The notes under the pieces are model-generated. The model had not been told where the DNA came from and did not search any database. It saw only the letters and a program-made list of their open reading frames with translations. The translations under genes were made by a program, and so were the position numbers. 64,000 nt of DNA, taken from positions 251,482-315,481 of the forward strand of contig BPJM01000001.1 in the NCBI GenBank assembly GCA_026004615.1. The letters are read 5' to 3'. Shown in pieces: positions 5,285 through 55,006 of this stretch (its first letter is position 1; every line of letters begins with the position of its first letter). This stretch comes from Planctomycetota bacterium. Lineage in GTDB: Bacteria; Planctomycetota; J058; J103.

Positions 5285-5397
5285 GCCCTTCCGGCGCCGC
5301 CGCGCGGCGAGCACGCCCCCCGGCCGCCCGCAGCCGGCCGGCGCTCGCGCTCGACCGCACGCTGCGGGGTGAGCCGGTGCGCGCGGAGGGAGCGGCC

Positions 5398-6729: not shown

Positions 6730-8530
6730 TGACCTTGACCTTGATGTCGCGGAAGTGGACCTCGGACTGCGGGTGCAGCGCGAAGCAGATCCCGCCGGCC
6801 AGCGAGTCCCGCATGCTGTCGTAGGCGATCTTGCGCGTGCGCCCGCCGGCCAGCATCTCCTGGAAGGCGTCCTCGTCGTAGCCGTAGACCAGCACCGTCA
6901 GCTTGTGCCAGTTGCCGTCCTTGACCAGCTCCGGCTCGAGCTTGACGAAACCGCGCCCGCTCGCGCGCACTCCGAGCGAGAACGAACCCCGCACCACCTT
7001 GTACTCGAGCTCGAGCAGATAATCCTGCCAGTCGGGCTTGCCCACCCCGGCGATGGCGCCGATCTCGCCGCCCCACTGCGACAGCGCCGCGCCCGCGGTC
7101 CCGTGCAGCTCCTTGTCGACCGGCTTCCAGCTCTCCTTGGGCGTCGGCTCGGGGAGCTTGTAGATCATGAGGTCGACGCCGAGGTTCTCCCACGGCATGC
7201 TGGCCAGGCGCGCCAGGTCGTCGCGCCGCTTCTGCGCGCGCTGGCGCTCGCGCTCGGCGGCCTGCTGGGCCTCCTTCTCCTTGATGCGGGCCACCGCCTG
7301 CTGCTGGGCCGCCTCGCTGCCCCCGCCGCGGTACTGCTCCCGCAGCGCCGCGATGCGCTCGCCCCACGTGGTGTCGCGGTAGCGCTCCAGATCGAAGCCC
7401 TCCAGCACCCCGAGCGCGCGCTCGTACTCGCCGGCCGCCGCGTACTGCTCCGCCTTGGCGAGCAGGGGCTCGGCCTCCGCCCTGGCCAGCGCCAGGCGCT
7501 CGAGCCGTTCGATCTCCGGCATCGCCTTGTCGGCCCACGCCTGCACGCGGCGGAAGCTGCCCGGCACCGCCGCCCACAGCTGGAGCGCCTCCTCCAGCTG
7601 CCCCTTGGCGGCGAGCGCGCCCGCCCGCTCTGCCACCTCGGCGATGCGGGCCGCGGCCGCCTGGTCCAGCTCGGTGCGCAGCCGCGCGATCTCGGCCTCC
7701 GCCTTGGTGGCCCACTCGCCGCTCAACTCCGCCCGCACCTCGCTCCAGCGCGCGATCGCCGCTGCGAGCTGTTCCGCTCGCGGCTCGCCCACCTCCGCCT
7801 GCGTCTGCTGGAACAGCCGCTCGGAGCGCGCGGCCGCCTCGGCCGCGAGCTGCTCGGCGCTCGGCCGCGCCGGGCGCGTGTCGGCCGCCCTCGGACCGGC
7901 GGCCATGACCGCCACGATGACGATCAGCACCCCGGCGGCCGCACACCCCCCGAGGATCAGCCCCATCGGCGGCCCGCTGCGGCGCGGCGCGGGCGCGCGC
8001 TCGCCCGAGCCGGAGCGGCCGCGCGGGGGCCCACCCGCCCGCCGCTTGAGCCCGCGCGCTCCAGCCCCGCCGGCCGCTCTGGCAGCTGCGCCCCCGGCGG
8101 CGCGCCGCTCGCCGGCCGCCTCCGCCGCTGGTGCGGCCGCCCTCGCCTCGCGTTGCGCCCGCACCGGCCTGCGCGCGGCGCCATTGGGCGCCCCTGCAGC
8201 TTCCTTCGCCCCTGCCTTGAGCCGCCGGCGCGCCGCGGCGCGCTGCGCGGGCGGCGAGCCCGCGCTCCTGGAGGCCGGGGCCTTGCGCCCGCCGGGCGCC
8301 GCCGCCGCAGGCGGCGCCTCGGGCGCAGCCGCCCCGGGCGCGGAGCGAGCACCGCCGGCCGCCGCGCCCGCTGCGGGCTCCTGCTCCTTCTTGCCGACCA
8401 GCGGCAGCACGTCGACCTTGCACTCGGCGCAGTAGTAGGCGTCGTCGACCTGCAGCGCCGCCCCGCCCGCGATGTCCTCGGCCGGGATCTTGGTGCCGCA
8501 GCTGTCGCAGTACCTGGAGACCACCCGCAA
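6716..8530 (-). CDS. membrane-anchored protein: N-terminal zinc ribbon, low-complexity linker, one TM, coiled-coil/TPR-like region, C-terminal DUF1080-like (concanavalin-type) domain
   Basis: TTG start at 8530 with AGGGGGA upstream. CDSCG..CAECK zinc ribbon. TM helix GLILGGCAAAGVLIVIVAVMAA. C-terminal ..WQDYLLELEYKVVRGSFSLGVRASG..GNWHKLTVLVYG..GICFALHPQSEVHFRDIKVKV resembles the DUF1080 beta-sandwich. The function call is inference. Confidence 0.7.
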   Translation of the reverse strand: MRVVSRYCDSCGTKIPAEDIAGGAALQVDDAYYCAECKVDVLPLVGKKEQEPAAGAAAGGARSAPGAAAPEAPPAAAAPGGRKAPASRSAGSPPAQRAAARRRLKAGAKEAAGAPNGAARRPVRAQREARAAAPAAEAAGERRAAGGAAARAAGGAGARGLKRRAGGPPRGRSGSGERAPAPRRSGPPMGLILGGCAAAGVLIVIVAVMAAGPRAADTRPARPSAEQLAAEAAARSERLFQQTQAEVGEPRAEQLAAAIARWSEVRAELSGEWATKAEAEIARLRTELDQAAAARIAEVAERAGALAAKGQLEEALQLWAAVPGSFRRVQAWADKAMPEIERLERLALARAEAEPLLAKAEQYAAAGEYERALGVLEGFDLERYRDTTWGERIAALREQYRGGGSEAAQQQAVARIKEKEAQQAAERERQRAQKRRDDLARLASMPWENLGVDLMIYKLPEPTPKESWKPVDKELHGTAGAALSQWGGEIGAIAGVGKPDWQDYLLELEYKVVRGSFSLGVRASGRGFVKLEPELVKDGNWHKLTVLVYGYDEDAFQEMLAGGRTRKIAYDSMRDSLAGGICFALHPQSEVHFRDIKVKVINRR

Positions 8531-11460: not shown

Positions 11461-12254
<794 letters not shown>

Positions 12255-12255
<1 letters not shown>

Positions 12256-13172
12256 TGGACGGCCTGCCGTTCGTGGGCGAGGGCGGCTTCGATCCGGCCG
12301 CCTTCGAGGCGTACCTCGCCCTGCGCCTGCAGCACCGGCCCGATCTGGCGCGCGTGCAGCTGGCGGGGCTGGTGGTGAGCAGTGCGCTGGCGCTGGCGGG
12401 AGCCGTGCTGGTGCTGGTGCGGCTGGGGCGCCGGCGCACCGTACCGCCGCCCCCCGGCCCGCCGGCACGAGCCGGCTGGGGGCTGGGGCTGGTGGCGGCC
12501 CTGGTGGTGGCGTTCCCGCTCGCAGCCGTGCTCGCCGGCGCGCTCGCTGCACCCTGGGCCGCCGCCGAACCCCCGCGCGCCGGGCCGCCAGCGGCGCGCC
12601 TGCTCGCCGGCGCGCTCGCCCTGGTGCTGCTCGCCGCCGGGGGGCTGGCGGCGGCGGGCAGGGCGCCGCGCGGGCTCGAGCCGCTGGGGCTCGGCAGGGG
12701 GCCGGCCGGGCGCGTGCTCGGGATCGGCCTATGGTATCTGCTGCTCGCCTTCCCCTTCGTCATGGGGCTGCAGCTGCTCTCCCAGCAGCTGTGCGACCGC
12801 CTCGACTGGCCGCGCCTGCCCAACCCGGCCGCAGCGCTCTTTCTCACCACCGGCCGGCTGCTCGATCTGGTGCTGGTCGCCGCCATCGCCTGCGTGCTGG
12901 CGCCGCTGGCCGAGGAGGTGCTGTTCCGCGGCCTGCTGTATCTGCCGCTGCGAGCGCGGCTGGGCCGCACGGGCGCCATCGTGGCCTCGGCCGCACTGTT
13001 CGCCGCCGTCCATCCGCCGGTCGACATGCCGGCGGTATTCGCGCTGGGGGTCGCACTCGCACTCGCCTACGAGCGCGCGGGCAGTCTGTGGGCCCCCATC
13101 GCCGCGCACGCCGCCAACAACCTGTACACCGTCGGCACGCTGCTGCTGCAGCGCCACCTGGCCTACGGCTAG
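12255..13172 (+). CDS. CPBP-family (CAAX) intramembrane glutamic endopeptidase
   Basis: The ATG overlaps the thiG stop (TGATG). Multiple TM helices. Motifs: APLAEEVLFRGLLY, ALFAAVH, AAHAANNL. Confidence 0.8.
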
Positions 13173-30800: not shown

Positions 30801-30877
30801 TGGCACGCCCGGAGGGATTCGAACCCCCGACCCGCGGATTAGAAATCCGCCGCTCTATCCAGCTGAGCTACGGGCGC
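30801..30877 (-). tRNA. tRNA-Arg (anticodon UCU), CCA encoded
   Basis: The reverse complement GCGCCCGTAGCTCAGCTGGATAGAGCGGCGGATTTCTAATCCGCGGGTCGGGGGTTCGAATCCCTCCGGGCGTGCCA folds as a cloverleaf: D arm GCTC/GAGC, anticodon stem GCGGA/TCCGC with loop TTTCTAA, T arm GGGGG-TTCGAAT-CCCTC. Confidence 0.93.
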
Positions 30878-37731: not shown

Positions 37732-39543
<1,812 letters not shown>

Positions 39544-39559: not shown

Positions 39560-40426
39560 TCACCGTTGCGCCTCGTCGATGCGGTCACACACCGCAAAGT
39601 GGTACACGAAGGCGAGCAGGGCTGCGAGCACCAGCAGTACCGCGCCGCCCCAGCCCGGCCGCAATCCCATGAGCACCAGCCCGCACAGCACGCTCGCGCC
39701 CACCAGCCCGGCAAGCAGCCAGGCATTCGCCCGATTGCTGCGCCGCCGGACCACGGCGACCACGACCGGATGGAGCGCAAACGGCAGGCCGCCGGTGAAC
39801 AACAACCAGACGAGCAACCGCACCAGGCCCGAGAACGACCGCATCGTCGCATCCAGCCAGTCCACGGACCACCGGCTGTCGATGCGCCTGGCGCTTCGCA
39901 CCAACCCGCCGGGGACCTCCGCCTCGTCGCGCAGCCGGATCAGCCGCGCGCGCAGCTCGACCTCGGCCCCGAGGCCCCGGCGCCCGTCGGTGAATGCTCC
40001 CAGCTCGGAGAACAGCACTCCTTCCACCAGCTCGTCGCCTGCGGCCAGCGCGCGGCCGAGCTCGATCGCCTGCTCGCGGTTTGCCGGCGCCGCGCCGCCG
40101 AACCGCTCGGCGACGACCTCGCGCACCCGCCCCAGCCCGACCAGAAAATAGAGTTCCCGGTCCTCGACCGCCTCGTAGAGCAGGTCCGTCACCCGCCCGT
40201 CGAGGTCGCGGTATACCGGCGCCACCACCAGCTTGCGGATCTCGTCGCGCCGCGGCAGCGCGGCCGCCACCTCGCGCACCACCCGCTCGGCCAGCACGCG
40301 CCGGTACGGATCCAGCTCGCGCCGGGGCTGCCCGCCGAACAGCTTGCCGGCCAAAAACCAGACCAGCACGCCGGTGGCGGCTGCCAGAAAGGCGATTTCG
40401 ACGATCCGCGCCGCCGTCCGAAACAT
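39560..40426 (-). CDS. polytopic membrane protein, unknown function (cluster member)
   Basis: N-terminal TM (IVEIAFLAAATGVLVWFLAG), a ~170-aa soluble region, then three C-terminal TM helices. There are 16 nt to the downstream kinase gene and 3 nt to the upstream gene. Confidence 0.7.
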   Translation of the reverse strand: MFRTAARIVEIAFLAAATGVLVWFLAGKLFGGQPRRELDPYRRVLAERVVREVAAALPRRDEIRKLVVAPVYRDLDGRVTDLLYEAVEDRELYFLVGLGRVREVVAERFGGAAPANREQAIELGRALAAGDELVEGVLFSELGAFTDGRRGLGAEVELRARLIRLRDEAEVPGGLVRSARRIDSRWSVDWLDATMRSFSGLVRLLVWLLFTGGLPFALHPVVVAVVRRRSNRANAWLLAGLVGASVLCGLVLMGLRPGWGGAVLLVLAALLAFVYHFAVCDRIDEAQR

Positions 40427-40429
40427 GCC

Positions 40430-42424
40430 TCAGACCGCCGCGTGCATGGGTTCGCGGATCACCCACAGATCCTGCACCCGCTCGGCGGTGCGGATCGTGA
40501 ACGCGACCTCCTCCCGCCGCTCCGCCTCCCAGACATGAAGCGCGAATCCGCCGCGCGTCACGCCGAACACCAGGTCCGAGGCCCCATCGACCCAGCGGAT
40601 CTGATCGGGGCCGCGGTAGTCGAACGAGCCGCCCTCCTCGAGCGAAACCGCGGTGATGCCGTGCTCCTTGGCGCCGATGAGCAGGTGCGGCATGCCGCCG
40701 ATCTCGGCCACCCGCAGCATGTAGATCGGATTGGCCTTGCGCACCCCGACCTCCCGCGGCGAACCCGGGTCATCCACCGACCAGCGCAGCACCCGACCCT
40801 CGCTGGTGCCTGCGAAGATCTCGTGGCGGGTGGTGGCAAAGGCCGTGACGGCGCCATGACCACCCCGGTAGCGCACAAGCGCCCGTTCCGGGTGCAGCAG
40901 CTCCGCGCGGTAGACGTCCGGCCCCGACGAGAAGTACATGCGCCCCTGACCGTCGATCGTCACCCCGCGCGTGACCTCCTGCCCGCGCGTCACCTCCTCG
41001 AACAGCTGCTCCGGTCCGCGCACCTGATACTGGTCCCAGCGGTACAAGCCCAGCTCGGAATGGGTGGCGTAGATGTAGCCGTCGAAGTACGCAGCCGCGT
41101 TGACCCCGCCCTGGCCGCGCGGCTCGCGCGGAAAGCGCAGCGCACGCGCCGTCGCGGGCAGCCCCTCCTGCACCAGATAGACCCCGCGCTGCGCGCCGGC
41201 CAGCACGCACGGCCCCTCGCGGGTGACGGCAGCCCGCACGCTGCGCACGAATCCGAGCGGCCCCCCGGTGAAGTCGTAGCACTCGCGGGGCCCCTCGCGC
41301 CGGCTCGGATTGGCCGGATCGTAGGCGAGCGCCTGCTGCCCGAGGGCCAGCAGCACGCGCCGGGTACGCATGCCCCCCTCCGCCAGCCGCCGCTGCCGCT
41401 CCCCCTCGCACTGGGCCATGTGGCGGGCAAACTTCTCCAGCCGCTCCTGCAGCCGCCGCTCCAGCTCGTCCACCTGCGCCGCGGCGAGCTGTTCCGGCGT
41501 CATGTCGCGGCGGATCAGCTCGCGGATCAGCTCCGCGCGCAGCCGCTCGTCCTCCAGGAGGAAGATGAGCGCCTTGGTCTCGTCCATGCCCAGCTGGCGC
41601 CGGATGGCCTCGAAACGGCGCAGCTCCTCCTCGGTCCGGCGGCGTTCCAGCTCGCTCTTGAGCGAGAGATCCTTGAGCACGCCCTGGAAGCGCAGCGCCC
41701 GCGCCAGTTCCTCGACCTCGGCGCGCTGCAGCTGATCGCTGCGCTCGATGCGCACCCGCAGCTCCTGGATCCGCTCGTGCTGCGCCAGTGCCTCCTCACG
41801 CGCGCGCGCCTCGGCGCGCTGGCGGCGCAGCTCCTCGTACGCCGCACAGGCGAACGAGGGGTAGCGCACCTCCAGCACCTCCAGCCCGGCACCGAACGCA
41901 AGCGCCCCCAGCTCCTCGCGCACCAGCGGCTCCAGCACCGCGCGCGCCTCCGACTCCATGAGTTCCTCGGTGCCGCAGCCGCGCACGTAGCGTCCCAGCC
42001 CCGCCTGCACCCCGGGCCTGAGATAGGCACGCAGATCGTCGAGCGCCACCGCTGCCCGCGCCCGCGCGACCAGCAGCGTCCGCTCGAACTGCTCGACGTC
42101 GATGGCGCGGCGCGGCAGCCGCACCACCACCTCGACGCCCGCGGTCGCCTCGTCGCCGTCGCGCGTCCGCAATCCGCTCACCTCGAAGGCAATCGCAACG
42201 TCCAGCTGCTTGATCAACAGCGCCCGAAAACCGTCCCGCGGCCCGCTCGCCCGCTCGCCCTCCCCCAAAAGCCGCTCCTGCCCGTCGTCGTAGCGCACGA
42301 GCGCCACCGCGCCCTGCGGGACCACGAGCTGCTTCGACAGCAGACCCGGCAGCTCGGCCGCCTCGACGCGCAGCCCCAGCACCTCCGGCGCGTCCGCAAA
42401 GCCCGACCACTCGCTCGTGCCCAT
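40430..42424 (-). CDS. SPFH/band-7-like N-domain + long coiled coil + C-terminal beta-propeller-like protein (cluster member)
   Basis: ATG at 42424 (MGTSEWSGF..). N-part: LVVPQGAVALVRYDDG..DVAIAFEVSGLRTRDGDEATAGVEVVVRLPRRAIDVEQF.. (SPFH-like, by inference). Glu/Arg coiled coil: EELRRQRAEARAREEALAQHERIQELR... C-part: repeated beta-strand blades (..VYLV..YIYATHSELGLYRW..GRMYFSSG..EIFAGTSEGRVLRWS..LLIGAKEHGITAV..). Confidence 0.7.
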   Translation of the reverse strand: MGTSEWSGFADAPEVLGLRVEAAELPGLLSKQLVVPQGAVALVRYDDGQERLLGEGERASGPRDGFRALLIKQLDVAIAFEVSGLRTRDGDEATAGVEVVVRLPRRAIDVEQFERTLLVARARAAVALDDLRAYLRPGVQAGLGRYVRGCGTEELMESEARAVLEPLVREELGALAFGAGLEVLEVRYPSFACAAYEELRRQRAEARAREEALAQHERIQELRVRIERSDQLQRAEVEELARALRFQGVLKDLSLKSELERRRTEEELRRFEAIRRQLGMDETKALIFLLEDERLRAELIRELIRRDMTPEQLAAAQVDELERRLQERLEKFARHMAQCEGERQRRLAEGGMRTRRVLLALGQQALAYDPANPSRREGPRECYDFTGGPLGFVRSVRAAVTREGPCVLAGAQRGVYLVQEGLPATARALRFPREPRGQGGVNAAAYFDGYIYATHSELGLYRWDQYQVRGPEQLFEEVTRGQEVTRGVTIDGQGRMYFSSGPDVYRAELLHPERALVRYRGGHGAVTAFATTRHEIFAGTSEGRVLRWSVDDPGSPREVGVRKANPIYMLRVAEIGGMPHLLIGAKEHGITAVSLEEGGSFDYRGPDQIRWVDGASDLVFGVTRGGFALHVWEAERREEVAFTIRTAERVQDLWVIREPMHAAV

Positions 42425-42483: not shown

Positions 42484-43635
42484 TCAGTTCGCGCGCGCGT
42501 ACTGCTCGAACCGCGCCAGCTCCTCCGGTCGCACCGAAGGGCGCAGCTCCTCCAGCAACCGCTCCAGCAGCGCCGCGTCGATCACCGCTTCCTCCCCGCG
42601 CTCCACCGCCGCCAGGAAGGACTCCGCGGCCGCGGTGTCGCACAGGTTGCGTACATCCGCCCCCGACCAGCCCTCCAGCCGTGCCGCCAGCAGGTCCAAA
42701 TCGACGTCGCGGGCCACCGGCCGCTCCGCCAGGTACATCTCCAGCATCTTGCGCCGCGCCGGCAGGTCCGGCAGCGGCACGTACACCTTGGCGTCGAACC
42801 GCCCCGGCCGCAGCACCGCCGGATCGAGCGACCACGGCTCGTTGGTCGCGCCCAAGAAGAGCAGCGGGTTCTTGCCGTCGCTGTCGAACCCCTCCAGCTC
42901 CGCGAGCACCTGTGGCACCACGCGCTGCATCACGCTCGACTGGGTGTCGCGCCGCGCCGGCACCAGCGCCTCGATCTCGTCGATGAAGATCACGCTCACC
43001 GGGTGGCGCCGCGCCTCGGCGAACAGCTCCGCCACGTTCTTCTCCGACTCGCCGACCCACTTCGACAGGATCTCGCTGGGGCGCACCGTGAAGAACGCTG
43101 CCTCGACCTCGCCCGCCACCGCCTTCGCGATCAGCGTCTTGCCCGTGCCCGGCGGCCCGTAGAGCAACAGCCCCCCTCCGGGACGGATCCGGTACCGGCG
43201 GGCCACCTCGGCGTGCCGCAGGGGATAGATCAACTTGAGCCGGATCTGCTCCTTGACCTCCTCCAGCCCGGCCACGTCCGCAAACCGTACCCGCGGCCGC
43301 TCGGCCTGACGGAAGCCGGCCGGCCCCGCTGCCTCCAGCGCCTCCGCCTGGCCCAGGCGCGCGGGCGCGGCGCCCTCGGCGCGCGCCGCGCCGCCCCGCG
43401 GCGGCGCCTGCGGGTCGATACGGCGCGCCAGCTCCTTGAGCCGGTGCGCGTTGCGCACGCGCTGTTCGCGCAGCCGGCCCTCGGAGGCCGCCGCCACCCG
43501 GTACAGGTATTCCGCAGCCTTGAGCAGGCGGTAGCGCGCTTCCTGCCACGCGCCGGCGCGGTAGGCCGCCAGCCCGCGTTCGCGGCTCTCCTCGAAGCGC
43601 TCCAGCAGGAAGCGCTGGCTCGCGCCGCCGCCCAT
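42484..43635 (-). CDS. Vps4/katanin/spastin-clade AAA+ ATPase with N-terminal MIT-like three-helix domain (copy 1)
   Basis: ATG at 43635. N-terminus: RERGLAAYRAGAWQEARYRLLKAAEYLYRVAAASEGRLREQRVRNAHRLKELARRI (MIT-like). GLLLYGPPGTGKT (Walker A), SKWVGESEKNVAELF (pore loop 1 of the meiotic clade), VIFIDEIEAL (Walker B), GATNEPWSLDPAVLRPGRFD, VYVPLPDLPARRKML. Confidence 0.85.
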   Translation of the reverse strand: MGGGASQRFLLERFEESRERGLAAYRAGAWQEARYRLLKAAEYLYRVAAASEGRLREQRVRNAHRLKELARRIDPQAPPRGGAARAEGAAPARLGQAEALEAAGPAGFRQAERPRVRFADVAGLEEVKEQIRLKLIYPLRHAEVARRYRIRPGGGLLLYGPPGTGKTLIAKAVAGEVEAAFFTVRPSEILSKWVGESEKNVAELFAEARRHPVSVIFIDEIEALVPARRDTQSSVMQRVVPQVLAELEGFDSDGKNPLLFLGATNEPWSLDPAVLRPGRFDAKVYVPLPDLPARRKMLEMYLAERPVARDVDLDLLAARLEGWSGADVRNLCDTAAAESFLAAVERGEEAVIDAALLERLLEELRPSVRPEELARFEQYARAN

Positions 43636-43691: not shown

Positions 43692-45233
43692 CTACCAGCA
43701 GGCGCGGCGTGTCCCTGCCGCACCCGAGCCCTCGCGCGGCGCCGGCAGGCGGTAGGTGGCGAGCGGCTCGCGTTCGCCCCGCCGGTAGACCCGCACCAGG
43801 CGTTCCCCGCTGACGGCATCCGTGGCGAGCACCATGCGAAAGCGGCCGCTGCGATACACTCCATCCGGGCGCCCGTCGTGCGCCAGCCAGCCCGCGGCCC
43901 CGGCGGCCCGCTCGAGCGGGGGCAGCTCCAGCCCGTCCCACCGAACGCCCAGCCCCTGGCGCGAGAGCACCAGCCACGCGGCCACCGCGAGCGGCGAGGC
44001 CACCGCCCCCAGCACGAGGGCAGCACCCAGTGCCCGCGAGGCGCGCCGGCTGGGCCGGCTGCCGGCGCTGCGCCCCGCGGCCGGCCCAGCCGGCTGCTGC
44101 GCCCGCCGCCCCGAGCGGAGCGCGCGCCAGCCCTCGCCGCCAGCACCGAACGGCGCGAGGTGGCCGGCCCCCGACGGCGCCAACGAGCCCGGTCCCTGCC
44201 CGCTCGCAACAAAGCCCGCCACCTGCCCGGCGCCAGCTGGCCCGGCGCAGAGAACCGGCCCCGCCGCCCGGCCTTCGCCACTCCCGCCCTGGCGCGCCTC
44301 CTCGCCGAACAAGGCGCCCAGAACCGCCGCCCAGCTCGCCGCCACAGGCGCCCCGGACGCAACGGCACGCACCGCCGCCGCCCCGGGTCGCTGGCTGGGC
44401 AGCTCACCCCAGCGCGGACCGCCGGCGATCGCCTCCAGGTCGCGGGCCAGCTCCGCCAGCGAACCGTAGCGCCGCTCGCGGCCCGTGTAGCAGCGGCTGT
44501 AGATGTGGTCCCACCACCACGAGATCGCCGGGTTCACGTCGCTCGGCAGGTCGCGCCCCTGCGGCAGGATCCCGGTCAACATCTCGAACAACAACACCCC
44601 GATCGCGTAGATATCGGCGCGGTGGTCGATCTGTTCGCCGGGCCGCTCCTGCTCCGGCGCCATGTAGTGCACGGTCCCGAGCGCGCCCCCGGTCACCAGG
44701 CTCGGGCGGAGCCCGTCCTGCCCCGGCGGAGCCTGCCCGGCGCTCGGGCCACCGCCGACCTGGAAGTCCGTGATGCGCACCCGCCAGGTCTCTGCCCGCC
44801 CGCCCGCCTCCGCCCCCTCGACGAGCACGTTTTCCGGCTTGAGGTCGCCGTGCACCACCCCGCGGGCGTGCGCGTAACCTACGGCCTCCACCACCTGGCG
44901 CAACACCGCGGCGGCGTCCGCCACCTCCAGCCGCCCCCGCTCGCGCAACAGCTGCCGCAGGCTGCGCCCCACCACCAGCTCCCGCACCAGGAACGCCGGG
45001 CGGTGGCTGAGGTTGACATCGTGCACGCGGACGATCCCGGGGTGCTCCAGGCCGAACTGCGCCCGCGCTTCCCGCAACAGCCCCGCGATCGCGCTGTCCG
45101 AGGTGGCGAGCTTGAGGGCGACCGTTCGCGACAGATAGACGTGCTCGGCCCGCCACACCTCGCCGTGCGCCCCGACGCCGAGGCGCTCGACCAGCCGCCA
45201 CTGCTGCACCCGCGTCCCCTCGCGCACGTCCAT
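43692..45233 (-). CDS. membrane-anchored Ser/Thr kinase-like protein with atypical catalytic motifs (HGD, DFQ)
   Basis: ATG at 45233. LGVGAHGEVW, VALKL, HGDLKPENVLV, ITDFQVGG, VHYMAPEQ. A long Gly/Ala/Pro linker, then a TM (ALGAALVLGAVASPLAVAAWLVL) and a ~100-aa extracytoplasmic tail. Confidence 0.82.
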   Translation of the reverse strand: MDVREGTRVQQWRLVERLGVGAHGEVWRAEHVYLSRTVALKLATSDSAIAGLLREARAQFGLEHPGIVRVHDVNLSHRPAFLVRELVVGRSLRQLLRERGRLEVADAAAVLRQVVEAVGYAHARGVVHGDLKPENVLVEGAEAGGRAETWRVRITDFQVGGGPSAGQAPPGQDGLRPSLVTGGALGTVHYMAPEQERPGEQIDHRADIYAIGVLLFEMLTGILPQGRDLPSDVNPAISWWWDHIYSRCYTGRERRYGSLAELARDLEAIAGGPRWGELPSQRPGAAAVRAVASGAPVAASWAAVLGALFGEEARQGGSGEGRAAGPVLCAGPAGAGQVAGFVASGQGPGSLAPSGAGHLAPFGAGGEGWRALRSGRRAQQPAGPAAGRSAGSRPSRRASRALGAALVLGAVASPLAVAAWLVLSRQGLGVRWDGLELPPLERAAGAAGWLAHDGRPDGVYRSGRFRMVLATDAVSGERLVRVYRRGEREPLATYRLPAPREGSGAAGTRRACW

Positions 45234-45393
45234 GGTCGCACCACTCCCTGGGCTGTGCTGTCGTTGCGGCGGCGGGTCCTTCCTCCCACGCCCGGCGCGC
45301 CCGCGGCCGGCCCCCGGTCCGTGCGCTTTCACGGTAGCACCCGCCACGCCCCGCGACAAGCCGATCCGGGGCGGAGCTGGGCGGGACCGGGAC

Positions 45394-45990
45394 TTACTCG
45401 CGCTCGCGCAGCTCGCGTTCGATCTCGCCGAGCCCCGACTCGATCTCGCGGTCCAGCGCCCGCTGTTCCTCGTGCGCCGCTTCCTCCTCGATGAGCCGGT
45501 CGATCTCGGCCTCGCTGACCTCCTCCTCGTCGAAGGCCTTCTCGGTGAACATCGTCTCCTGCGAGGCCTCGAGGAACAGCTCCGCCTGCTGCTCGAAGGT
45601 CTCGGCCTGCAGCATGGCCTTCTCGAAGTTGGCCTGGACCTCCGCCCAGTTGATGTCCCCGAAGACCTCGGCGATCGACTTCGAGATCATGGCCAGCGAG
45701 CGGGCGAACTGGCCCTGCATCTCCATCTGGTTCTTGCGCTGCGCGGCCGTCTCGATCGCCAGCAGCTGCCGTTCCAGTGCCCGCCGCTGCGCCGCCGTCT
45801 GGCGGATGGTGCGCTTGAGGAAGCGGACCTGGTCCTCCGCGCCGAGCTGGCGCGCTCGCCGCGCCTTCTTGATGTACTCCTGCTCGTGGCGCAACAGCTC
45901 CCGGATGCTCCGCTTGCAGGCGTTGATGCCCTTGCGGATCTCCATGTCTCGCTCCAGCTTGCGTTCCTGCTTGGACTTGAACAGCCCCAT
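45394..45990 (-). CDS. ESCRT-III superfamily protein, CHMP2/3 (Vps2/24)-like (198 aa)
   Basis: ATG at 45990. MGLFKSKQERKLERDMEIRKGINACKRSIRELLRHEQEYIKKARRARQLG..FLKRTIRQTAAQRRALERQLLAIETAAQR..QMEMQGQFARSLAMISKSIAEV.. has a basic helical-hairpin N-half and an acidic C-tail ..EEEVSEAEIDRLIEEE... Confidence 0.8.
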   Translation of the reverse strand: MGLFKSKQERKLERDMEIRKGINACKRSIRELLRHEQEYIKKARRARQLGAEDQVRFLKRTIRQTAAQRRALERQLLAIETAAQRKNQMEMQGQFARSLAMISKSIAEVFGDINWAEVQANFEKAMLQAETFEQQAELFLEASQETMFTEKAFDEEEVSEAEIDRLIEEEAAHEEQRALDREIESGLGEIERELRERE

Positions 45991-46098: not shown

Positions 46099-47385
46099 TC
46101 AGACCGACATGCTCTCCTGCCAGCGGATGAACTGCTCCATCTCCTCCGGACTGGTCTGCGGCGTGATGCGCTGCGCGGCGTGCTCGAAGTCCGCCCGCGT
46201 CAGCTGGCGCACCCGCAAGCGGTAACCGCGCACCGCCTCCAGGCCGCGGTCGACGAGCTCCGCCAGCTCGGGGTTCATCTCCGCGATCATGCGGTTCTGC
46301 ACCTCCTTGGCGAACCGCTCCAGCTCCCGGCCGCTGTAGCCGGCCGTCATCTCGACCAGCTCCTCCAGCGGCACCTCGCTCGCAAACCCCTTGGCGGCGA
46401 AGTGGATGTTCAGGATCGCGGCGCGGCTCGCCGCGTCGGGCAACGGGATGAGCACCTTCTTGTCGAAGCGCGACAGCACCGCCTCATCGAGATCCCAGGG
46501 ACGGTTGGTGGCGGCGATCGTCAGCACGTAGATGTCATCCCGGCCCTTCTCGGCCAGCCCATCGAGCTCCGCCAGGATGGTCGACAGCAGTCGCCGCTCC
46601 GCCCCCGAATCCTCGCGGTCACGCGAGCCGGCGAGCGCATCGAACTCATCCAGGAACACCACCGAGGGCGAGGCATCGCGTGCCTGCCCGTACAGCTCGC
46701 TGACCAGCCGCGCCGACTCGCCGAAGTACTTGGACATGAGCGAGCTGACCTTGACGTTGTAGAACACCGCACGCGTCTCGTGTCGCGCGCTGCGCCGCAA
46801 CGCGTTGGAGGTGGCGGCGGCCAGCAGCGTCTTGCCGGTGCCGGGAGGGCCATAGAACATCATGTTCCGAAAGCGGCTGACCCGCACCCCCTCGGGCGCC
46901 TGCGCCAGCGAGAGTGCAAGCGCATACTTGATCTCGCGCTTGACCTCCTCCAGCCCCCCGATCTCGTCCCAGGTCACGCTCGAGGCTGTGATGAGCCCGG
47001 CGACCGCACTGGCCAGCGCCTCGTCGTCCTCGCGCGCCACCGAGCCTGCACGCCGCTCCAGGCCCGCGGCACCGCTCGCTCGCCCGCCGGCGGCGGGCTG
47101 ATCCTGCCGGTCGGCGGCCGGCTCCGCGCCGCGGCCCCGCTCGTGCACCGGCGGCGCCTCGCCGGCGAGCAGGCGCTTGCCCACCTCACGGAAGCGCAGC
47201 GCATCCTTTTTGTGCTTGTATTCCGAGCGCCGGTCGGGCGCGTTGTGGGCGAGCTTGAGCGCCAGCCGCGACGCCAGCTCGTAGTCCGCGGCCGCGCGCG
47301 CGTCCTCGCCTGCCAGATAGCGCTTGCGCGCCCGCTCCAGCGTCTGTACCAGCGCGCGCCTCAGATCCGTGCTCAGATCGACCAT
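46099..47385 (-). CDS. Vps4-like AAA+ ATPase with MIT-like N-domain (copy 2)
   Basis: ATG at 47385. N-terminus: LERARKRYLAGEDARAAADYELASRLALKLAHNAP..KHKKDALRFREVGKRL (MIT-like). MMFYGPPGTGKT, SKYFGESARLVSELY, VVFLDEFDAL, AATNRPWDLDEAVLSRFDKKVLIPLPD (compare Vps4 ATNIPW.LD.A..RRFE.RIYIPLPD), and a C-terminal helix ..SPEEMEQFIRWQESM. Confidence 0.85.
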   Translation of the reverse strand: MVDLSTDLRRALVQTLERARKRYLAGEDARAAADYELASRLALKLAHNAPDRRSEYKHKKDALRFREVGKRLLAGEAPPVHERGRGAEPAADRQDQPAAGGRASGAAGLERRAGSVAREDDEALASAVAGLITASSVTWDEIGGLEEVKREIKYALALSLAQAPEGVRVSRFRNMMFYGPPGTGKTLLAAATSNALRRSARHETRAVFYNVKVSSLMSKYFGESARLVSELYGQARDASPSVVFLDEFDALAGSRDREDSGAERRLLSTILAELDGLAEKGRDDIYVLTIAATNRPWDLDEAVLSRFDKKVLIPLPDAASRAAILNIHFAAKGFASEVPLEELVEMTAGYSGRELERFAKEVQNRMIAEMNPELAELVDRGLEAVRGYRLRVRQLTRADFEHAAQRITPQTSPEEMEQFIRWQESMSV

Positions 47386-47413
47386 GGCCGTGCCGAACCC
47401 GCCCGCCCCTCGC

Positions 47414-48052
47414 TCACAGCTCGCTCTCGGAAACGGGCTCCTCTTCGAGCCGCTTCGCCAGCTTCTCCTCCCGCTCCAGCGCCTCGTCGAGCTGCCCCGC
47501 CGCCTCGGCGGCATTGATGGCGTCGATCTCCTCGAGGAACCGCGCCTTGTCCGGATCCGCCTCCTCGGTCTCCCACGATTCGATCTCGATTCCGACCTCG
47601 TCGAGCGTCGCGTTCAGCTCGTCGATGTAGGCCGCCTCATCCACCTCTGCCCCCCGCAGCTTCTCGTCGAGTCCGGAGACGCGCACCCGCTCGATCAGCG
47701 AGCGGATACGGTTCTGGTCCCCGCTGCGCTCCAGCCGCTCCAGCCCGCGCAGATACCGCGTCAGGCCGACCATCTCCAGCGCCACCACCTTGCTCTCGCG
47801 CTTGAGATAGGCGGTATCGATCCGCACCTGGCGCAGCTCCTCCCACAGCACGTCCACCTCGACGCCGCTGCCCTCCCGCCGCGCCCGCTTGATGCGGTCC
47901 ACCAGCTCGGAGCGGCGGCTCTCCAGCTTGCGCATCTGCATGCGCTTCTTGCGCGCCTCACGCTTGAGCCCCAGCAGCGCCACCTTGAGGTCGCGGCTGG
48001 TGACCTCCTTTTTGCGGCCGAAGAGCTGCTCGAAGATCCCCTTGATCGGCAT
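47414..48052 (-). CDS. ESCRT-III/Snf7-like protein (212 aa) with MIM-like C-terminal motif
   Basis: ATG at 48052 after GGGAGA. MPIKGIFEQLFGRKKEVTSRDLKVALLGLKREARKKRMQMRKLESRRSELVDRIKRARREG.., a helical hairpin with a basic N-half. Acidic C-half ending ..LEREEKLAKRLEEEPVSESEL. Confidence 0.75.
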   Translation of the reverse strand: MPIKGIFEQLFGRKKEVTSRDLKVALLGLKREARKKRMQMRKLESRRSELVDRIKRARREGSGVEVDVLWEELRQVRIDTAYLKRESKVVALEMVGLTRYLRGLERLERSGDQNRIRSLIERVRVSGLDEKLRGAEVDEAAYIDELNATLDEVGIEIESWETEEADPDKARFLEEIDAINAAEAAGQLDEALEREEKLAKRLEEEPVSESEL

Positions 48053-48160
48053 CCGCGATCTCCCGTCCCACTCCGACCGCCGCCAGCCCGCCCGCCCAGC
48101 GGGCGCACCGCGGCCTCCTTCGCCCTCCGCGCGCCCGGCCCTGCCCGCGCGCTCGCTGCG

Positions 48161-48961
48161 CTACTCCAGCTCCAGGCGCCGTTCCCGCACCTCCTCGGTC
48201 GGCTCGCGCCGCGGCGGAGCGGGCGCCGGTTCCCCGCGCTCGATCTCCCTCTCGATCGCGTCTCCTTGCTGGGCGGCGCGCTCGGCCGGCGGGGCGGCTT
48301 CGCCCGCCGGCGGTGCGAGCTCGCGCACCGGGCGCGCGAGCTCGGCGGCCGGAGGTGCCAGCTCGGCCGCGGGCTCCCGCCCGCACTGCGCGGACTCGCC
48401 TTCCGCCGCCCCCGCCTCCCCGAGCAGCTCCGCCTCCAGCGCCTCCAGCTCCCGGTCCTCGCGCTCCGCACCCAGCTCCATGCTGGTGTCCAGGGTGGCG
48501 ACAGCGTGCATCGCCTCCTCGAACTTCTCGCGGCTCTCCTCGAAGCGCAGCGCGATCTCCTCGATCTGCTTGTCGTCCACGCCCCTGAGCTTCATCGCCT
48601 CCATCTCCTGGATCTTGCCGATGAGCTGCAGGTGCAGGTTGATGTTGTGCCGGTAGATGCGCTGCCGCTGCTCGTAGAGGTCCATCTGCCGGCGCAGGCG
48701 CTGGATCTGGAACAGCACGCTCTTCTTGCGGCGGCCATCGACGACGCCCGCGCGCACCTTCGCCGCCTCGCTGCGCTCCAACGCCTCCAGCTTGGCCAGC
48801 TCGCGGTCCAGCTCGTTCAGTTCCACCTCGTTGTGGGTCAGCAGCCGGTCCAGACCGTGCAGCAGCTCGCGCGTGCTGCGCGCGGTCTCGAACAGCCGCC
48901 GCGTCTCCTCCGGCAGATCCGGCCGCACGAACAGGCTCTTGATCCGATCCAGCAACGCCAC
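48161..48961 (-). CDS. ESCRT-III/Snf7-like protein (266 aa) with extended Pro/Ala/Glu-rich tail
   Basis: GTG at 48961 after GGGGAAGGA. ..ELNELDRELAKLEALERSEAAKVRAGVVDGRRKKSVLFQIQRLRRQMDLYEQRQRIYRHNINLHLQLIGKIQEMEAMK..DDKQIEEIALRFEESREKFEE.. parallels the Snf7/CHMP4 alpha1-alpha4 layout. The tail has the repeat AAELAPPAAELARPVRELAPPAGEAAPPAE. Confidence 0.72.
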   Translation of the reverse strand: MALLDRIKSLFVRPDLPEETRRLFETARSTRELLHGLDRLLTHNEVELNELDRELAKLEALERSEAAKVRAGVVDGRRKKSVLFQIQRLRRQMDLYEQRQRIYRHNINLHLQLIGKIQEMEAMKLRGVDDKQIEEIALRFEESREKFEEAMHAVATLDTSMELGAEREDRELEALEAELLGEAGAAEGESAQCGREPAAELAPPAAELARPVRELAPPAGEAAPPAERAAQQGDAIEREIERGEPAPAPPRREPTEEVRERRLELE

Positions 48962-49024: not shown

Positions 49025-50455
49025 TCACAGGCGCCGGCGCTTGAGGATCGCGCGCTCGCCGACCTCCAGGAGCGACAGCTCCGGATCGCGCGCGAGCAAC
49101 TCCCCCACCGCGCGCGCCAGCAGGCGCTCCTCCACCTCCATCTCCTCCTGGATCGCCCGCACCACCACGTGCCCGCCCCGCAGCGACAGCTCCGGATGCG
49201 ACTCCAGGTGCCGCCGCACCCGCTCCACCTTCTCGCGATCGCTCTCGGGATCGAACAGCCGCAGCACCCCGCCCCACCGCTCGTCCTCAGCATGCTGGAG
49301 CTGCCAGCGCGTGCCCCCCCGCCACTGGACCGCGCAGACCAGCCGATCGCGGCCCGCCAGGTGGTGCGCGACCTCGGGCTCCCAGCCGGTGGTCGACAGC
49401 ACCCCGACGTAGCAGAACGGCTCCTCCACCCCCCCTGCCCCCGCCAGCCCGATCAGCTCCAGCGCCCGTTCCAGCTCCGGCACCCCGGCGGGCCGACTCG
49501 CGCACCGGCGCACGAGCAGCTCCTGCAGCGGCGAGACGACACACGCTGCAAGCACCAGCCGCGTCTCGCGCCGCCCGAAGATCGAGCGCGTGAACACGCG
49601 GTAGACCGACGCCTCGTCGCGCGGCATCGCATCGAGCAGCGCCCGTTCGTAGATGCGGTGCCGCTTCATGAGGTCGACCACCTCGTCGGAGCGCGCGCGC
49701 CGCTGGTGCGTGCGGTCGCGTGGACCCGCGTTGAGCATGGTCCCGTCGAGCGGATGCGGCAGGCGGCGCACCTCCGCCATCTTCTCGTCGAAGCGCGCGA
49801 TGAACAGCTCCTCCAGCGCGCGTGCGCGCTCCAGCAGCACCGCCCCGTCGGGCAGCGCCTCGGGCAAGGGCAGCGCCGGCACCGGCGGCGGATCGCCCGC
49901 GCGGCCGCCTCCCACCACCTCGGCGACCAGGTCCAGCACCGAGACCTCGCTCGGCTGCAGCGCCCGCTTGCCGGTCAGCCGCGCGAAGAAGGCCTCCACC
50001 ACCTCGTGCGCCTGCTCGCTCGTCAGCGCCACCGGCACCAGACCCGGCGCCAGGCGCGCAGGCGGCTCGGGCGCCCCAGCCCCGGACAGCTCGCAACCGG
50101 CCGGCTGCAGGACATCCTCGTACAGCGCGCGCAGCTTCTCGGCCAGCAGCGCCGGCTCCTCGCGCAGGTTGCGCAGCACCTCGCGGATCTCCGCCAGCGA
50201 GCGGCCGAAGCGCGTCTTCATGGCGTGGATCGCCAGCAGCACCGGCAGGATCCAGTCCTCGCGGTACACCGGTGTCCGCCCGCCGCGACGCGCCTGCGGC
50301 GGCGGCAGCACGCCCTCGCTCACGTAGAAGCGCAGCGTGCGCTCCGAGGTCGGAAACCCCAGCGCCGTCGAGCGCTCCTCGATCTCGCGGTAATCGAGCA
50401 GGCGCTCCTCCTCGTCCTTCAGGCGGGCCCCCAGCTCCTGCAGTCGCTCGTTCAC
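49025..50455 (-). CDS. MerR-type HTH domain protein with large uncharacterised C-terminal region (cluster member)
   Basis: GTG at 50455. LLDYREIEERSTALGFPTSERTLRFYVSEGVLPPP is a MerR-like HTH/wing signature. The remaining ~380 aa have no domain I recognise. Confidence 0.7.
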   Translation of the reverse strand: MNERLQELGARLKDEEERLLDYREIEERSTALGFPTSERTLRFYVSEGVLPPPQARRGGRTPVYREDWILPVLLAIHAMKTRFGRSLAEIREVLRNLREEPALLAEKLRALYEDVLQPAGCELSGAGAPEPPARLAPGLVPVALTSEQAHEVVEAFFARLTGKRALQPSEVSVLDLVAEVVGGGRAGDPPPVPALPLPEALPDGAVLLERARALEELFIARFDEKMAEVRRLPHPLDGTMLNAGPRDRTHQRRARSDEVVDLMKRHRIYERALLDAMPRDEASVYRVFTRSIFGRRETRLVLAACVVSPLQELLVRRCASRPAGVPELERALELIGLAGAGGVEEPFCYVGVLSTTGWEPEVAHHLAGRDRLVCAVQWRGGTRWQLQHAEDERWGGVLRLFDPESDREKVERVRRHLESHPELSLRGGHVVVRAIQEEMEVEERLLARAVGELLARDPELSLLEVGERAILKRRRL

Positions 50456-53161: not shown

Positions 53162-55006
53162 GTGAGACCCAGAAGGACGAGGTGGGTGCTGCCAGCGGTG
53201 ACGGCGCTCAGCGTAGCCGGCCTGGTGGTCGGCTGCGGTAGCGGCAAGGACCGCACCACCGGCGGTGGCAGCAGCAGTGGCAGTACGACCGCCCAGGGAC
53301 AGTTCCACACCGTGGGTCAGCTGGTGACGGGCCGCAAGGGCCACTCCGCGACGCTGATCCCCTCGACGGGACAGGTGCTGGTGGTCGGCGGGTTGGCGCG
53401 CGCGGGTGGGACGGACGTCGCGGTGGAGACGGCGGAGCTGTTCGATCCCGCCAGCGGCCGCTTCGTGCCGGTGCAGGCCCGGCTGAGCACCGCGCGGGCC
53501 TACCACGCGGCGGCGGTCTCCGCGATCGGAAACGTGCTCATCGCCGGCGGGCAGCAGGACGCGCAGGGCAACCAGCTGCTGCAGACCGTCGAGGTCTACA
53601 GCGCGCAGACCGGCCGCTTCAGCACCGCGTCCTCGCTCGATTTCGCGGTCAGCGAGGCGCTGGCCTTCACCTACCCGTGGCAGGGCGCACAGCGCTTCCT
53701 GGTCGCCGGCGGGCGGGCGACGGGCCAGGTGGCTCGCGCGAACGGCTATCGCTACACCGCGGATGCCGCCCCGACGCGCGTGGGTGCGGCCTCCCTGCTC
53801 GCGGCGCGCTACGGCGCGCGCACGGCGCCGCTCGACGCCCAGGGCAACCGGGTGGTGGTGGCCGGCGGCCTGACGACGGCGGTCGAGGTCTTCCACGCCG
53901 CCACCGAGAGCTTCACCGTGGTGGGCCAGCTCACCGGCGTGCGCTACGGTGCCGCACTCGCTCCGCTCGGCAACGGCAAGGTCGCGATCATCGGCGGCCG
54001 CAGCGGCGTGGCGACGAATGCCGCCGCCGAGGCGACGATCGCGATCTACGATGACGCCACGGGCACGATCCAGCTCGCGACCCGCCAGCTGCAGACCGCG
54101 CGCTCGGACGCCACGGCCGTGGCCCTGCCCAACGGCGACATCCTCGTGGTCGGCGGGATCTCCTCGACCGGCCAGGTCCTGGCCAGCACCGAGGTGATCA
54201 GCGGCAACGGGATCGACCTCACGGTGCGCCAGGGCCCGAACCTGCAGGTGGCGCGGCGCGGCCACACCGCGACGCTACTGCCGAACGGCGCCGTGCTGAT
54301 CGCCGGCGGGGAGGATCAGAGCGGCACGCCGCTCGCCTCCGCCGAGGTGTTCGCCCTGCCGGGCGTGAACGTGCCCAAGCCGACGCTCAACCCCAACGCG
54401 CCGATTCCGCAGATCACCGCGATCAACCCGACGCAGGGCCCCACGGGCACGCACGTGACGATCACGGCGAGCGGCATCTCGACCAACGTGAACGAGATCA
54501 TCGTGAAGTTCGCCGGCCTGCTGACGCCTGCGCAGTCGGCGGTGCAGAACGGCAGCTCGGTGAACGTGACCGCCGTCGTGCCGCAGAACGCGGTGAGCGG
54601 CCCGGTGACGGTGACCGACGCGCTGAGCGGCCAGACCTCCAACGGGGTGCAGTTCACCGTGACCGGCTCGGGCGGTGGTGGCACCGGCACCGGTACGCCG
54701 CCGCGGATCTGGATCCTGCTGCCGAGCCGGGCGCCGGCGTTCGTGCCGGTCGGGATCGGCGGGGCGCACTTCTCCAACCCGAGCACCCCGTGGTTCATCC
54801 CGGTGGGCTCGGGCAACGGGGTGGCTTCGGTGACGCTGTTCAACTGGAGCGTGCAGAACATCCCGCTGATCGGCTCGGTCTCGGTCGGCTTCACGATCGT
54901 GCCGCCGGCGCTCCCGGTCGGATTCGCGACGGTCGAGGTCGAGTACCTCGGCATGCGCTCCAACGCCTTCCCCTTCGAGAAGACGACCCTGGTAGTGCGG
55001 CTGTAG
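53162..55006 (+). CDS. Kelch-repeat beta-propeller lipoprotein with C-terminal IPT/TIG domains
   Basis: GTG at 53162 after AGGAGG. Lipobox LVVGCGSG. Repeated ..R..H.A..L..G.VL..GG.. blades. IPT-like PQITAINPTQGPTGTHVTITASG..VSGPVTVT. Confidence 0.85.
   Translation: MRPRRTRWVLPAVTALSVAGLVVGCGSGKDRTTGGGSSSGSTTAQGQFHTVGQLVTGRKGHSATLIPSTGQVLVVGGLARAGGTDVAVETAELFDPASGRFVPVQARLSTARAYHAAAVSAIGNVLIAGGQQDAQGNQLLQTVEVYSAQTGRFSTASSLDFAVSEALAFTYPWQGAQRFLVAGGRATGQVARANGYRYTADAAPTRVGAASLLAARYGARTAPLDAQGNRVVVAGGLTTAVEVFHAATESFTVVGQLTGVRYGAALAPLGNGKVAIIGGRSGVATNAAAEATIAIYDDATGTIQLATRQLQTARSDATAVALPNGDILVVGGISSTGQVLASTEVISGNGIDLTVRQGPNLQVARRGHTATLLPNGAVLIAGGEDQSGTPLASAEVFALPGVNVPKPTLNPNAPIPQITAINPTQGPTGTHVTITASGISTNVNEIIVKFAGLLTPAQSAVQNGSSVNVTAVVPQNAVSGPVTVTDALSGQTSNGVQFTVTGSGGGGTGTGTPPRIWILLPSRAPAFVPVGIGGAHFSNPSTPWFIPVGSGNGVASVTLFNWSVQNIPLIGSVSVGFTIVPPALPVGFATVEVEYLGMRSNAFPFEKTTLVVRL

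Follow-up and report, generated by a model that had tools for sequence, protein, structure and literature searches.

Two small helical proteins encoded with a Snf7-family protein and an MIT-domain AAA ATPase in Planctomycetota: candidate subunits of an ESCRT-III/Vps4-like module

Results and discussion

The gene cluster and its conservation

The stretch of DNA analysed here, in the following called the window, comprises 64,000 nucleotides (nt) from a Planctomycetota bacterium (GenBank assembly GCA_026004615.1, contig BPJM01000001.1, positions 251,482 to 315,481) and has a guanine-plus-cytosine (GC) content of about 74%. Our analysis concerns two neighbouring genes on its minus strand, which were denominated A and B, and the cluster in which they are embedded (Table 1). 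A sequence-only reading had described the two products as Snf7-like paralogues, that is, as relatives of the ESCRT-III proteins, the product of A with a basic hairpin and an acidic C-terminal half that ends in a motif similar to the MIT-interacting motif 1 (MIM1), that of B with a tail of Pro/Ala/Glu repeats. It had also likened the three paralogues of the operon to the nucleator, main filament and Vps4 recruiter of ESCRT-III polymers, a division of roles that is hypothetical here. The observation itself has been confirmed, and its interpretation is partly supported.

Both open reading frames (ORFs) lie on the minus strand where that reading had placed them, and the strings quoted from them are found exactly, namely the N-terminal GIFEQLFGRKK, the C-terminal REEKLAKRLEEEPVSESEL, as well as RRKKSVLFQIQRLRRQMDLYEQ, AAELAPPAAELARPVRELAPPAGEAAPPAE and the ending RERRLELE. 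The GC content by codon position (0.92 at the third position, GC3, and 0.44–0.45 at the second, GC2) corresponds to that of genuine genes of this genome. Homologues of A form 60 clusters at 90% identity (46–81% identity) and those of B 18 clusters; by an exhaustive hidden Markov model (HMM) search the A family comprises 79 clusters at 50% identity. Where the homologues are named by their source, they are hypothetical proteins from metagenome-assembled genomes (MAGs) of Planctomycetota, with the single exception of one labelled Nitrospira (P0058). A and B are therefore real and conserved genes, and GC3 together with the conservation of the homologues rules out that they are chance ORFs. The charge polarity is real as well, the net charges of the N- and C-terminal halves being +13 and -20 for A and +5 and -20 for B; the Snf7-family protein of the cluster, protein C, likewise shows +13 and -20. 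Some of the divergent A-family proteins (among P0196-P0228) are 466-684 amino acids (aa) long, and DnaJ-type CXXCXGXG zinc-finger domains were found in 5 of 56 scanned A-family members (best E=1.2e-5).

The cluster lies on one strand throughout, with intergenic gaps of 3-108 nt. Its order is a gene for a MerR-type winged helix-turn-helix (wHTH) protein, B, A, AAA1, C, a Ser/Thr kinase gene, AAA2, the genes for a 664-aa and a 288-aa protein and an FHA/RDD kinase gene. To examine its conservation, one genome per species was taken, which gave 46 loci; in 44 of them the title gives Planctomycetota or a planctomycete taxon of lower rank, in the other two it reads 'uncultured bacterium' only. Mapping with tblastn and blastp showed that B, A, AAA1 and C are adjacent and keep their order in the 46 genomes wherever the contig is long enough, and that B is directly upstream of A at every locus that reaches upstream of A. 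The operon claim was thus borne out, B, A and C being kept together with AAA1 in these species-level genomes as far as the contigs extend.

Two architectures can be distinguished. Type-1 loci have the order MerR-B-A-AAA1-C-AAA2-Big-TM, often followed by a kinase. Type-2 loci, with the order B-A-AAA1-(Kdo/WaaP-family kinase)-C, are shorter and are devoid of AAA2, the MerR gene and the genes for the large proteins; their kinase matches Pfam Kdo with 1.5e-29 and is found at positions 11861-12670 of locus L020 and 12307-13116 of locus L030. A full type-1 cluster is also present in a MAG labelled by its depositor as Candidatus Kuenenia stuttgartiensis, of the anammox lineage (L016, DYIT01000088.1; label unchecked).

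Some loci depart from both types. At a divergent locus (L049, GCA_054868705.1, positions 3418-8089) the repertoire of small proteins is expanded, with a tandem pair of A paralogues (209 and 208 aa), a 274-aa protein weakly similar to B, a 194-aa protein without family match and a homologue of C, all flanked by two AAA ATPases. At two further loci (L051, 7095-8690, and L052, 7329-8747) a distant A-like protein is preceded by a helical partner of 212 or 222 aa with the N-terminus MSFLSWLFGR, and an AAA ATPase was not found nearby, so that these pairs may represent an ATPase-independent version of the system. Searches with tblastn found no copies on plasmids or phages, and a mobile-element origin was rejected.

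Protein C and the two AAA ATPases

Judged by its profile matches, protein C, the third small protein of the operon, is a true Snf7-family ESCRT-III protein. Several of its relatives carry PF03357, and in a comparison of the family profile with the sequences of the PDB, CHMP3 (8.7e-4), yeast Snf7 (4e-3) and CHMP2A were matched. It resembles A and B in its helix lengths and charge polarity, in the invariant Phe of its helix α0 and in having a short C-terminal motif that is conserved.

AAA1 is encoded immediately downstream of A. Its ATPase domain is recognised by Pfam (AAA, 2.4e-34), and Vps4_C is reached with E=0.025, which is below cutoff. A profile of its N-terminal 85 residues, built from 25 sequences, matches the MIT domain of Vps4B/SKD1 over its full length (7e-4) and that of Vps4A with 0.02; calpain-7 MIT and MITD1 are matched as well, alongside designed TPR proteins. 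AAA1 therefore has an MIT-AAA architecture. The longest possible ORF (46099-47514) would overlap gene A by about 100 nt; since the homologues begin at the position of MVDL/MDL, translation most likely begins with the ATG at 47385.

The second ATPase, AAA2, is conserved across the type-1 loci. The profile of its N-terminal domain gives marginal matches only, to the MIT domains of chitin synthase (0.024) and CdvC (0.97), and single-sequence Pfam scans did not detect MIT in either AAA1 or AAA2. The linkage of an ESCRT-III gene to a gene for an MIT-domain AAA ATPase is found in the form of the adjacent genes B-A-AAA1-C in 46 genomes.

Predicted structure and C-terminal motifs of A and B

In the AlphaFold2 (AF2) model of A (predicted local distance difference test, pLDDT, 84) helices extend over residues 6-13, 19-59, 63-110, 113-126, 139-152, 167-184 and 188-204. 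The first of these is the predicted α0; α1 and α2/3 form a hairpin of 41+48 residues, which is followed by four helices. The core fold that would be expected of an ESCRT-III protein (α1-α2/3 hairpin, α4, α5 and an N-terminal membrane motif) is thus present in the model. Within the N-terminal motif, which has a hydrophobic moment of 0.42, F7 is nearly invariant and F11 invariant, and we regard it as a putative membrane-inserting α0.

The AF2 model of B (pLDDT >90 in the core, <50 in the tail) consists of α0 (residues 3-11), a short extra helix (18-26), a hairpin of 30-70 and 76-125 (41+50 residues) and two further helices (130-155 and 165-188), so that B is predicted to have the shape of an ESCRT-III protein as far as order and lengths of the helices are concerned. 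Its N-terminal helix carries the same invariant Phe, F11, as that of A.

The C-terminal helix of A had been read as similar to MIM1, and the consensus (D/E)xxLxxRLxxL(K/R) was therefore searched for on this helix as a regular expression. The A protein of the window fits four of the six positions (E195, L198, R201 and L202), whereas L and K/R are replaced by E205 and P206. The canonical expression is absent from the A, B and C families, the A family having been searched in 75 members (0/75), and the MIM1 reading could not be upheld. Of the 75 A-family members, 45 have the shorter form [DE]xx[LIM]xx[RK][LM] and 57 have the half-motif Lxx[RK][LM], against a background of 0.01 per 45-aa window. 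What is kept throughout the family is L198-x-x-[RK]-[LM]-[ED]-x-E, located on the last predicted helix.

The repetitive tail of B is real in the window, where Tandem Repeats Finder detected a 21-nt repeat (7 aa, AAELAPP-like) in about 3.9 copies at 48285-48365, but the repeat sequence itself is not conserved. In the homologues the tails are 13-123 aa long and consist of 24% E, 17% A and 10% P, and other short tail repeats were found in 22 of 59 B homologues; going by these sequences, the tail is conserved in composition, not in sequence. Its extreme end, in turn, follows the pattern [ED][LIVM]E: E264 is nearly invariant, and 42 of the 59 homologues end in [LIVM]E. It is plausible that the C-terminal motifs of A and B serve as handles for MIT domains or ATPases.

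Evidence for and against a relationship of A and B to ESCRT-III

The best Foldseek match of the A model was closed CHMP3 (E 0.22, TM 0.65 normalised to the target), followed by CdvB, CHMP2A-CHMP3, CdvB2, PspA (rank 11), CHMP1B-IST1 and Vipp1 (rank 18). The Foldseek list of B is generic: YscO and the dynein stalk lead it, SMAC is also found, and entries of ESCRT-III type are scattered among them (PspA at rank 4, Vipp1 at 11, CdvB2 at 12 and Asgard ESCRT-IIIB at 18), all with E>=0.23.

For profile-profile comparisons of A, a diverse alignment of 56 sequences (A4; effective number of sequences, Neff, 5.9) was available in addition to earlier, shallow ones (Neff 2-3). With hhalign, A4 aligns to the C family with a probability of 57% (P=1e-4) over 141 collinear columns, residues 36-186 of A corresponding to 25-173 of C, which covers the helices α1-α5. 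In this alignment the hairpin tip pairs ARRxGxxxEVD with AKQLGxxDQL and the α5 motif pairs EIDAINAAE with EIDRLIEEE. Reversed profiles gave P 0.09-0.17 and an unrelated charged coiled coil P 0.13. When the columns were shuffled in blocks, the real score was reached in 0 of 40 (14-column blocks), 0 of 100 (7-column) and 1 of 100 (21-column) cases. The shallow alignments gave a weak signal (P ~0.015), and only the diverse A4 stood above the nulls. In addition, a divergent A member, L051_229, matches the C HMM with E=1.8e-5 (17-sequence set), and the coiled-coil segment of the 664-aa protein, used as a negative control, gave no hhalign signal against A, B or C.

Several results weigh against an ESCRT-III/Vps4-like module with A and B as subunits. 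Profile searches for Snf7 versus PspA, which the sequence-only reading had proposed as a check of its own claim, did not come out in its favour: neither A nor B matches either Pfam model at cutoff or any ESCRT-III sequence of the PDB. In detail, Pfam Snf7 and PspA are unmatched by the A protein of the window and 33 close homologues at E<=1 and by the 18 B members scanned; only one of the 56 diverse A members matches Pfam Snf7, with E=0.02 and below the curated cutoff; A and B have no NCBIfam match; and two family profiles each of A and B found no ESCRT-III among the PDB sequences at E<=10. Pfam, NCBIfam and PADLOC scans of A and B gave no matches beyond noise, THF_DHG_CYH and Band_7 tails being examples of it. 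The fold matches of A are topological and without statistical significance, as every Foldseek E-value is >=0.22, and for both proteins it has to be considered that helical hairpins resemble many unrelated folds. A comparison of A with a single CHMP3 fragment was not significant (hhalign, P=0.24), a test which is underpowered since even the Snf7-family protein C reaches only P=1.3e-3 in it. For B, hhalign gave values in the null range against C (P 0.02-0.05, and nothing with shallow alignments) and P ~1e-3 against A, which is equalled by reversed nulls (P 1.5-1.8e-3). An apparent profile link between B and A (P=7e-4, 158-162 collinear columns) was rejected for the same reason, the reversed-sequence controls being nearly equal (P 0.003-0.008, then 0.0015-0.0018). 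None of the 75 A-family members, as described above, carries the full MIM1 consensus. Finally, PAN, CDC48 and CdvC of NCBIfam are matched by the ATPase domains with similar scores (178, 177 and 162 bits for AAA1, the CdvC cutoff being 650), so that 'Vps4-like' is meant here in the architectural sense and not as a statement of orthology.

Taking both sides together, the profile-profile and fold evidence for a homology of A to the Snf7-type proteins is moderate, and A is probably a highly divergent Snf7-type ESCRT-III protein. To this extent the description as Snf7-like paralogues stands for A; for B it is unproven, because the profile scores are no better than those of reversed controls and the Foldseek matches are those of generic coiled coils. 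The case for B is made by its shape, its charge polarity, α0 with the invariant Phe and the fixed place directly upstream of A. We would put its homology to ESCRT-III at close to, but not above, an even chance, while its membership in the machine appears very likely.

Other genes of the cluster

The MerR-type protein, the gene of which lies upstream of B in the type-1 loci, carries its wHTH at the N-terminus, followed by an uncharacterised C-terminal domain. The kinase gene between C and AAA2 is restricted to the window genome and a close relative (L002); in the other type-1 loci AAA2 follows directly after C, and kinases flank the cluster elsewhere. At the end of the cluster, kinases are found not only in the window but also in L009, L015, L022, L041, L046 and L049. 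This recurrence at the same place in several related loci suggests that the module is regulated by phosphorylation.

The 664-aa protein matched nothing in Pfam, NCBIfam or the PDB. Its homologue in L049 (9260-11083) shows a weak N-terminal match to SPFH/Band_7 (E=0.023). Partnerships with PspA and with ESCRT systems are known for SPFH proteins. The 288-aa protein is predicted to be a membrane protein, based on hydrophobic segments judged by eye.

Rfam and tRNA scans of the window found nothing relevant to the locus, the sole RNA gene being a tRNA-Arg(TCT) at 30801-30877 on the minus strand. Downstream of the cluster and on the opposite strand (53162-55006, plus strand) a protein with Kelch repeats and IPT/TIG domains is encoded.

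Table 1. Features of the gene cluster, in window positions
Feature	Position	Strand	Evidence or remark
Second Ser/Thr kinase, FHA + RDD, cluster end	37732..39537	-	Pkinase 3.3e-36, FHA 5.8e-7, RDD 5.3e-19
288-aa protein, hydrophobic stretches	39560..40426	-	starts 3 nt past the stop of the 664-aa gene; conserved in type 1
664-aa protein: N-domain, charged coiled coil, C-terminal repeat-like region	40430..42424	-	conserved in type 1
AAA2, ~383 aa, start uncertain	42484..43635	-	Pfam AAA 1.8e-40, AAA_lid_3
Ser/Thr kinase between C and AAA2, start uncertain	43692..45359	-	Pfam Pkinase 1.9e-33
Gene C, 198 aa, Snf7-family	45394..45990	-	Pfam Snf7 E=1.8e-4
AAA1, 428 aa, MIT-like N-domain + AAA	46099..47385	-	immediately downstream of A
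Gene A, 212 aa, ATG start	47414..48052	-	ORF and homologue family
C-terminal motif of A, EEKLAKRLEEE (residues 195-205)	47438..47470	-	last predicted helix
N-terminal motif of A, KGIFEQLFGRK (residues 4-14)	48011..48043	-	alignment; predicted helix 6-13
Gene B, 266 aa, GTG start	48161..48961	-	ORF and homologue family
Extreme C-terminus of B, RRLELE-COOH	48164..48181	-	alignment of the B family
Disordered Glu/Ala/Pro-rich tail of B (residues 186-256)	48194..48406	-	pLDDT <50
First cluster gene, 476 aa, MerR-type wHTH	49025..50455	-	Pfam MerR_1 1.7e-7

Proposed mechanism and alternative explanations

On balance, we lean slightly towards the view that Planctomycetota possess a conserved, chromosomally encoded module of ESCRT-III/Vps4-like type for membrane remodelling, and that A and B make up two of its three small structural subunits. 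In such a module the N-terminal helix and the basic hairpin of A and B would bind the cytoplasmic membrane, and the hairpins would then assemble into a polymer, in which the Snf7-family protein C would probably be included. The acidic C-terminal halves might autoinhibit the subunits and offer the terminal motifs, i.e. Lxx[RK][LM][ED]xE of A and the disordered E/A/P linker of B with its ending [ED][LIVM]E-COOH, for recognition by the MIT domain of AAA1, possibly also by AAA2. By extracting subunits the ATPases would remodel or disassemble the polymer, and the Ser/Thr kinases, the MerR-type protein, the 664-aa protein and the predicted membrane protein might regulate and target the machine. In this scheme we infer the homology of B, the polymerisation, the binding to membranes, the binding of the motifs by MIT domains and the cellular process, which could be division, vesiculation or repair.

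The lack of any match of both families to the Snf7 and PspA models or to ESCRT-III sequences of the PDB would also be accounted for if A, and especially B, were unrelated to ESCRT-III and were coiled-coil proteins acting on the C/AAA system as adaptors or regulators. They might then recruit or template the polymer in the way that CdvA serves CdvB, work as cofactors of the ATPases or be substrates that mimic no more than the hairpin shape. Profile scores of B that equal the nulls and a Foldseek list led by YscO, the dynein stalk and generic coiled coils point in the same direction. A, however, is collinear with the Snf7-family protein C over α1-α5 above the nulls, its closest fold match is CHMP3, and the α0 with its invariant Phe, the helix lengths, the charge polarity and the conserved short C-terminal motif are common to A, B and C. 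We consider the adaptor explanation unlikely, though it deserves to be kept in mind.

Less probable still is a placement of A and/or B in the PspA/Vipp1 branch, which would turn the operon into a PspA-like scaffold for membrane stress with an acquired Snf7/AAA pair. PspA and Vipp1 do appear in the Foldseek lists, at ranks 4 and 11 for B and 11 and 18 for A, and neighbourhoods mixing Snf7, PspA and a third coiled-coil protein have been described (PMC11237479). Against this, PspA_IM30 of Pfam is unmatched in the 33+56 A members and the 18 B members, the best folds for A are CHMP3 and CdvB, and its sole profile link above the nulls is to the family of the Snf7-type protein C.

A stress or anti-phage signalling island, in which A and B would have nothing to do with membrane remodelling and would act as sensors or effectors of coiled-coil type, is suggested by generic PADLOC matches of the two kinases (PD-T4-6-like) and the two AAA ATPases (IetA-like, TRIP13-like), but is very improbable, given that these matches stem from shared kinase and AAA domains while none of the remaining genes, A, B and C included, is matched, that the core is syntenic over 46 species without plasmid or phage copies, and that a Snf7-family protein and an MIT domain are present.

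If A and B are indeed subunits of a remodelling module, they would constitute two new and highly divergent ESCRT-III subfamilies that engage MIT domains by a route other than MIM1, and multi-subunit ESCRT-III and Vps4-type machines would not be restricted to archaea and eukaryotes. Should they co-polymerise, bacteria would own a composite ESCRT-III remodelled by an ATPase, a trait that has been thought to be archaeal and eukaryotic. We put forward only tentatively that Planctomycetota carry such a composite chromosomal ESCRT-III machine throughout the phylum, for ATP-driven scission or remodelling of membranes. Its parts would be three or more subunit families (some genomes encode five small proteins), kinases dedicated to it and either one or two AAA ATPases of the MIT type; it could serve division or budding or the remodelling of invaginated membranes; Planctomycetota are known for their FtsZ-less division. 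The question bears on the time of origin of composite ESCRT-III polymers, by ancient inheritance or by transfer, on membrane remodelling and division in planctomycetes and on the reading of motifs other than MIM1 and MIM2 by MIT domains. A and B represent two new protein families for which polymerisation, MIT binding and control by phosphorylation are testable predictions.

Comparison with known systems

According to two reviews, a Vps4-like ATPase appears to be absent in bacteria (PMC7619361, PMC7615534). Ravi et al. 2024 report sporadic bacterial Snf7-family or PspA genes beside AAA+ ATPases, neighbourhoods of Snf7, PspA and a third coiled-coil protein in Deltaproteobacteria and Bacteroidetes, and the transfer of Vps4-like ATPases to bacteria with snf7 displaced by a TPR-6TM protein; they propose ATP-dependent membrane remodelling (PMC11237479). 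The general idea of such remodelling in bacteria thus already exists. Their cases differ from ours in being operons with ABC transporters or OmpA, or a Vps4-like ATPase without snf7 (PMC11237479), while the planctomycete core of B-A-(MIT-AAA)-C with kinases is built differently and its A and B families carry no annotation. Words beginning with 'planctomycet' are absent from the main text of PMC11237479, and full-text searches of the literature that combined ESCRT with Planctomycetes or Planctomycetota yielded no description of the operon.

PspA and Vipp1 (IM30) are bacterial hairpin proteins of the ESCRT-III superfamily; an amphipathic α0 and a similar order of helices are predicted for A and B, and structures of PspA and Vipp1 are among the Foldseek matches of both proteins. 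In contrast to them, A and B show no PspA_IM30 sequence signal. PspA systems have been described as lacking a Vps4-like ATPase (PMC7619361, PMC7615534), whereas in the planctomycete operon an MIT-AAA gene adjoins A, and partners such as PspB/C/F or Toastrack-type proteins were not among the cluster genes scanned with Pfam.

With the archaeal and eukaryotic systems, that is, ESCRT-III (Snf7/CHMP/CdvB) and Vps4/CdvC, the planctomycete operon has in common that several small proteins are encoded together with an MIT-domain AAA ATPase. A and B have a predicted α0, α1-α2/3 hairpin, α4 and α5, a basic core, an acidic C-terminal half and short C-terminal motifs, and C truly belongs to the Snf7 family. 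Unlike these systems, the operon is bacterial, its A and B proteins are too divergent for the Snf7 HMM and carry neither a canonical MIM1 nor a demonstrated MIM2, and homologues of ESCRT-I, ESCRT-II or CdvA were not seen in it. It has two ATPases, which in their AAA domains resemble PAN or CDC48 at least as much as CdvC, and it includes extra conserved partners, namely kinases of the Ser/Thr or Kdo type, a wHTH protein of the MerR type, the protein of 664 aa and one predicted to be a membrane protein.

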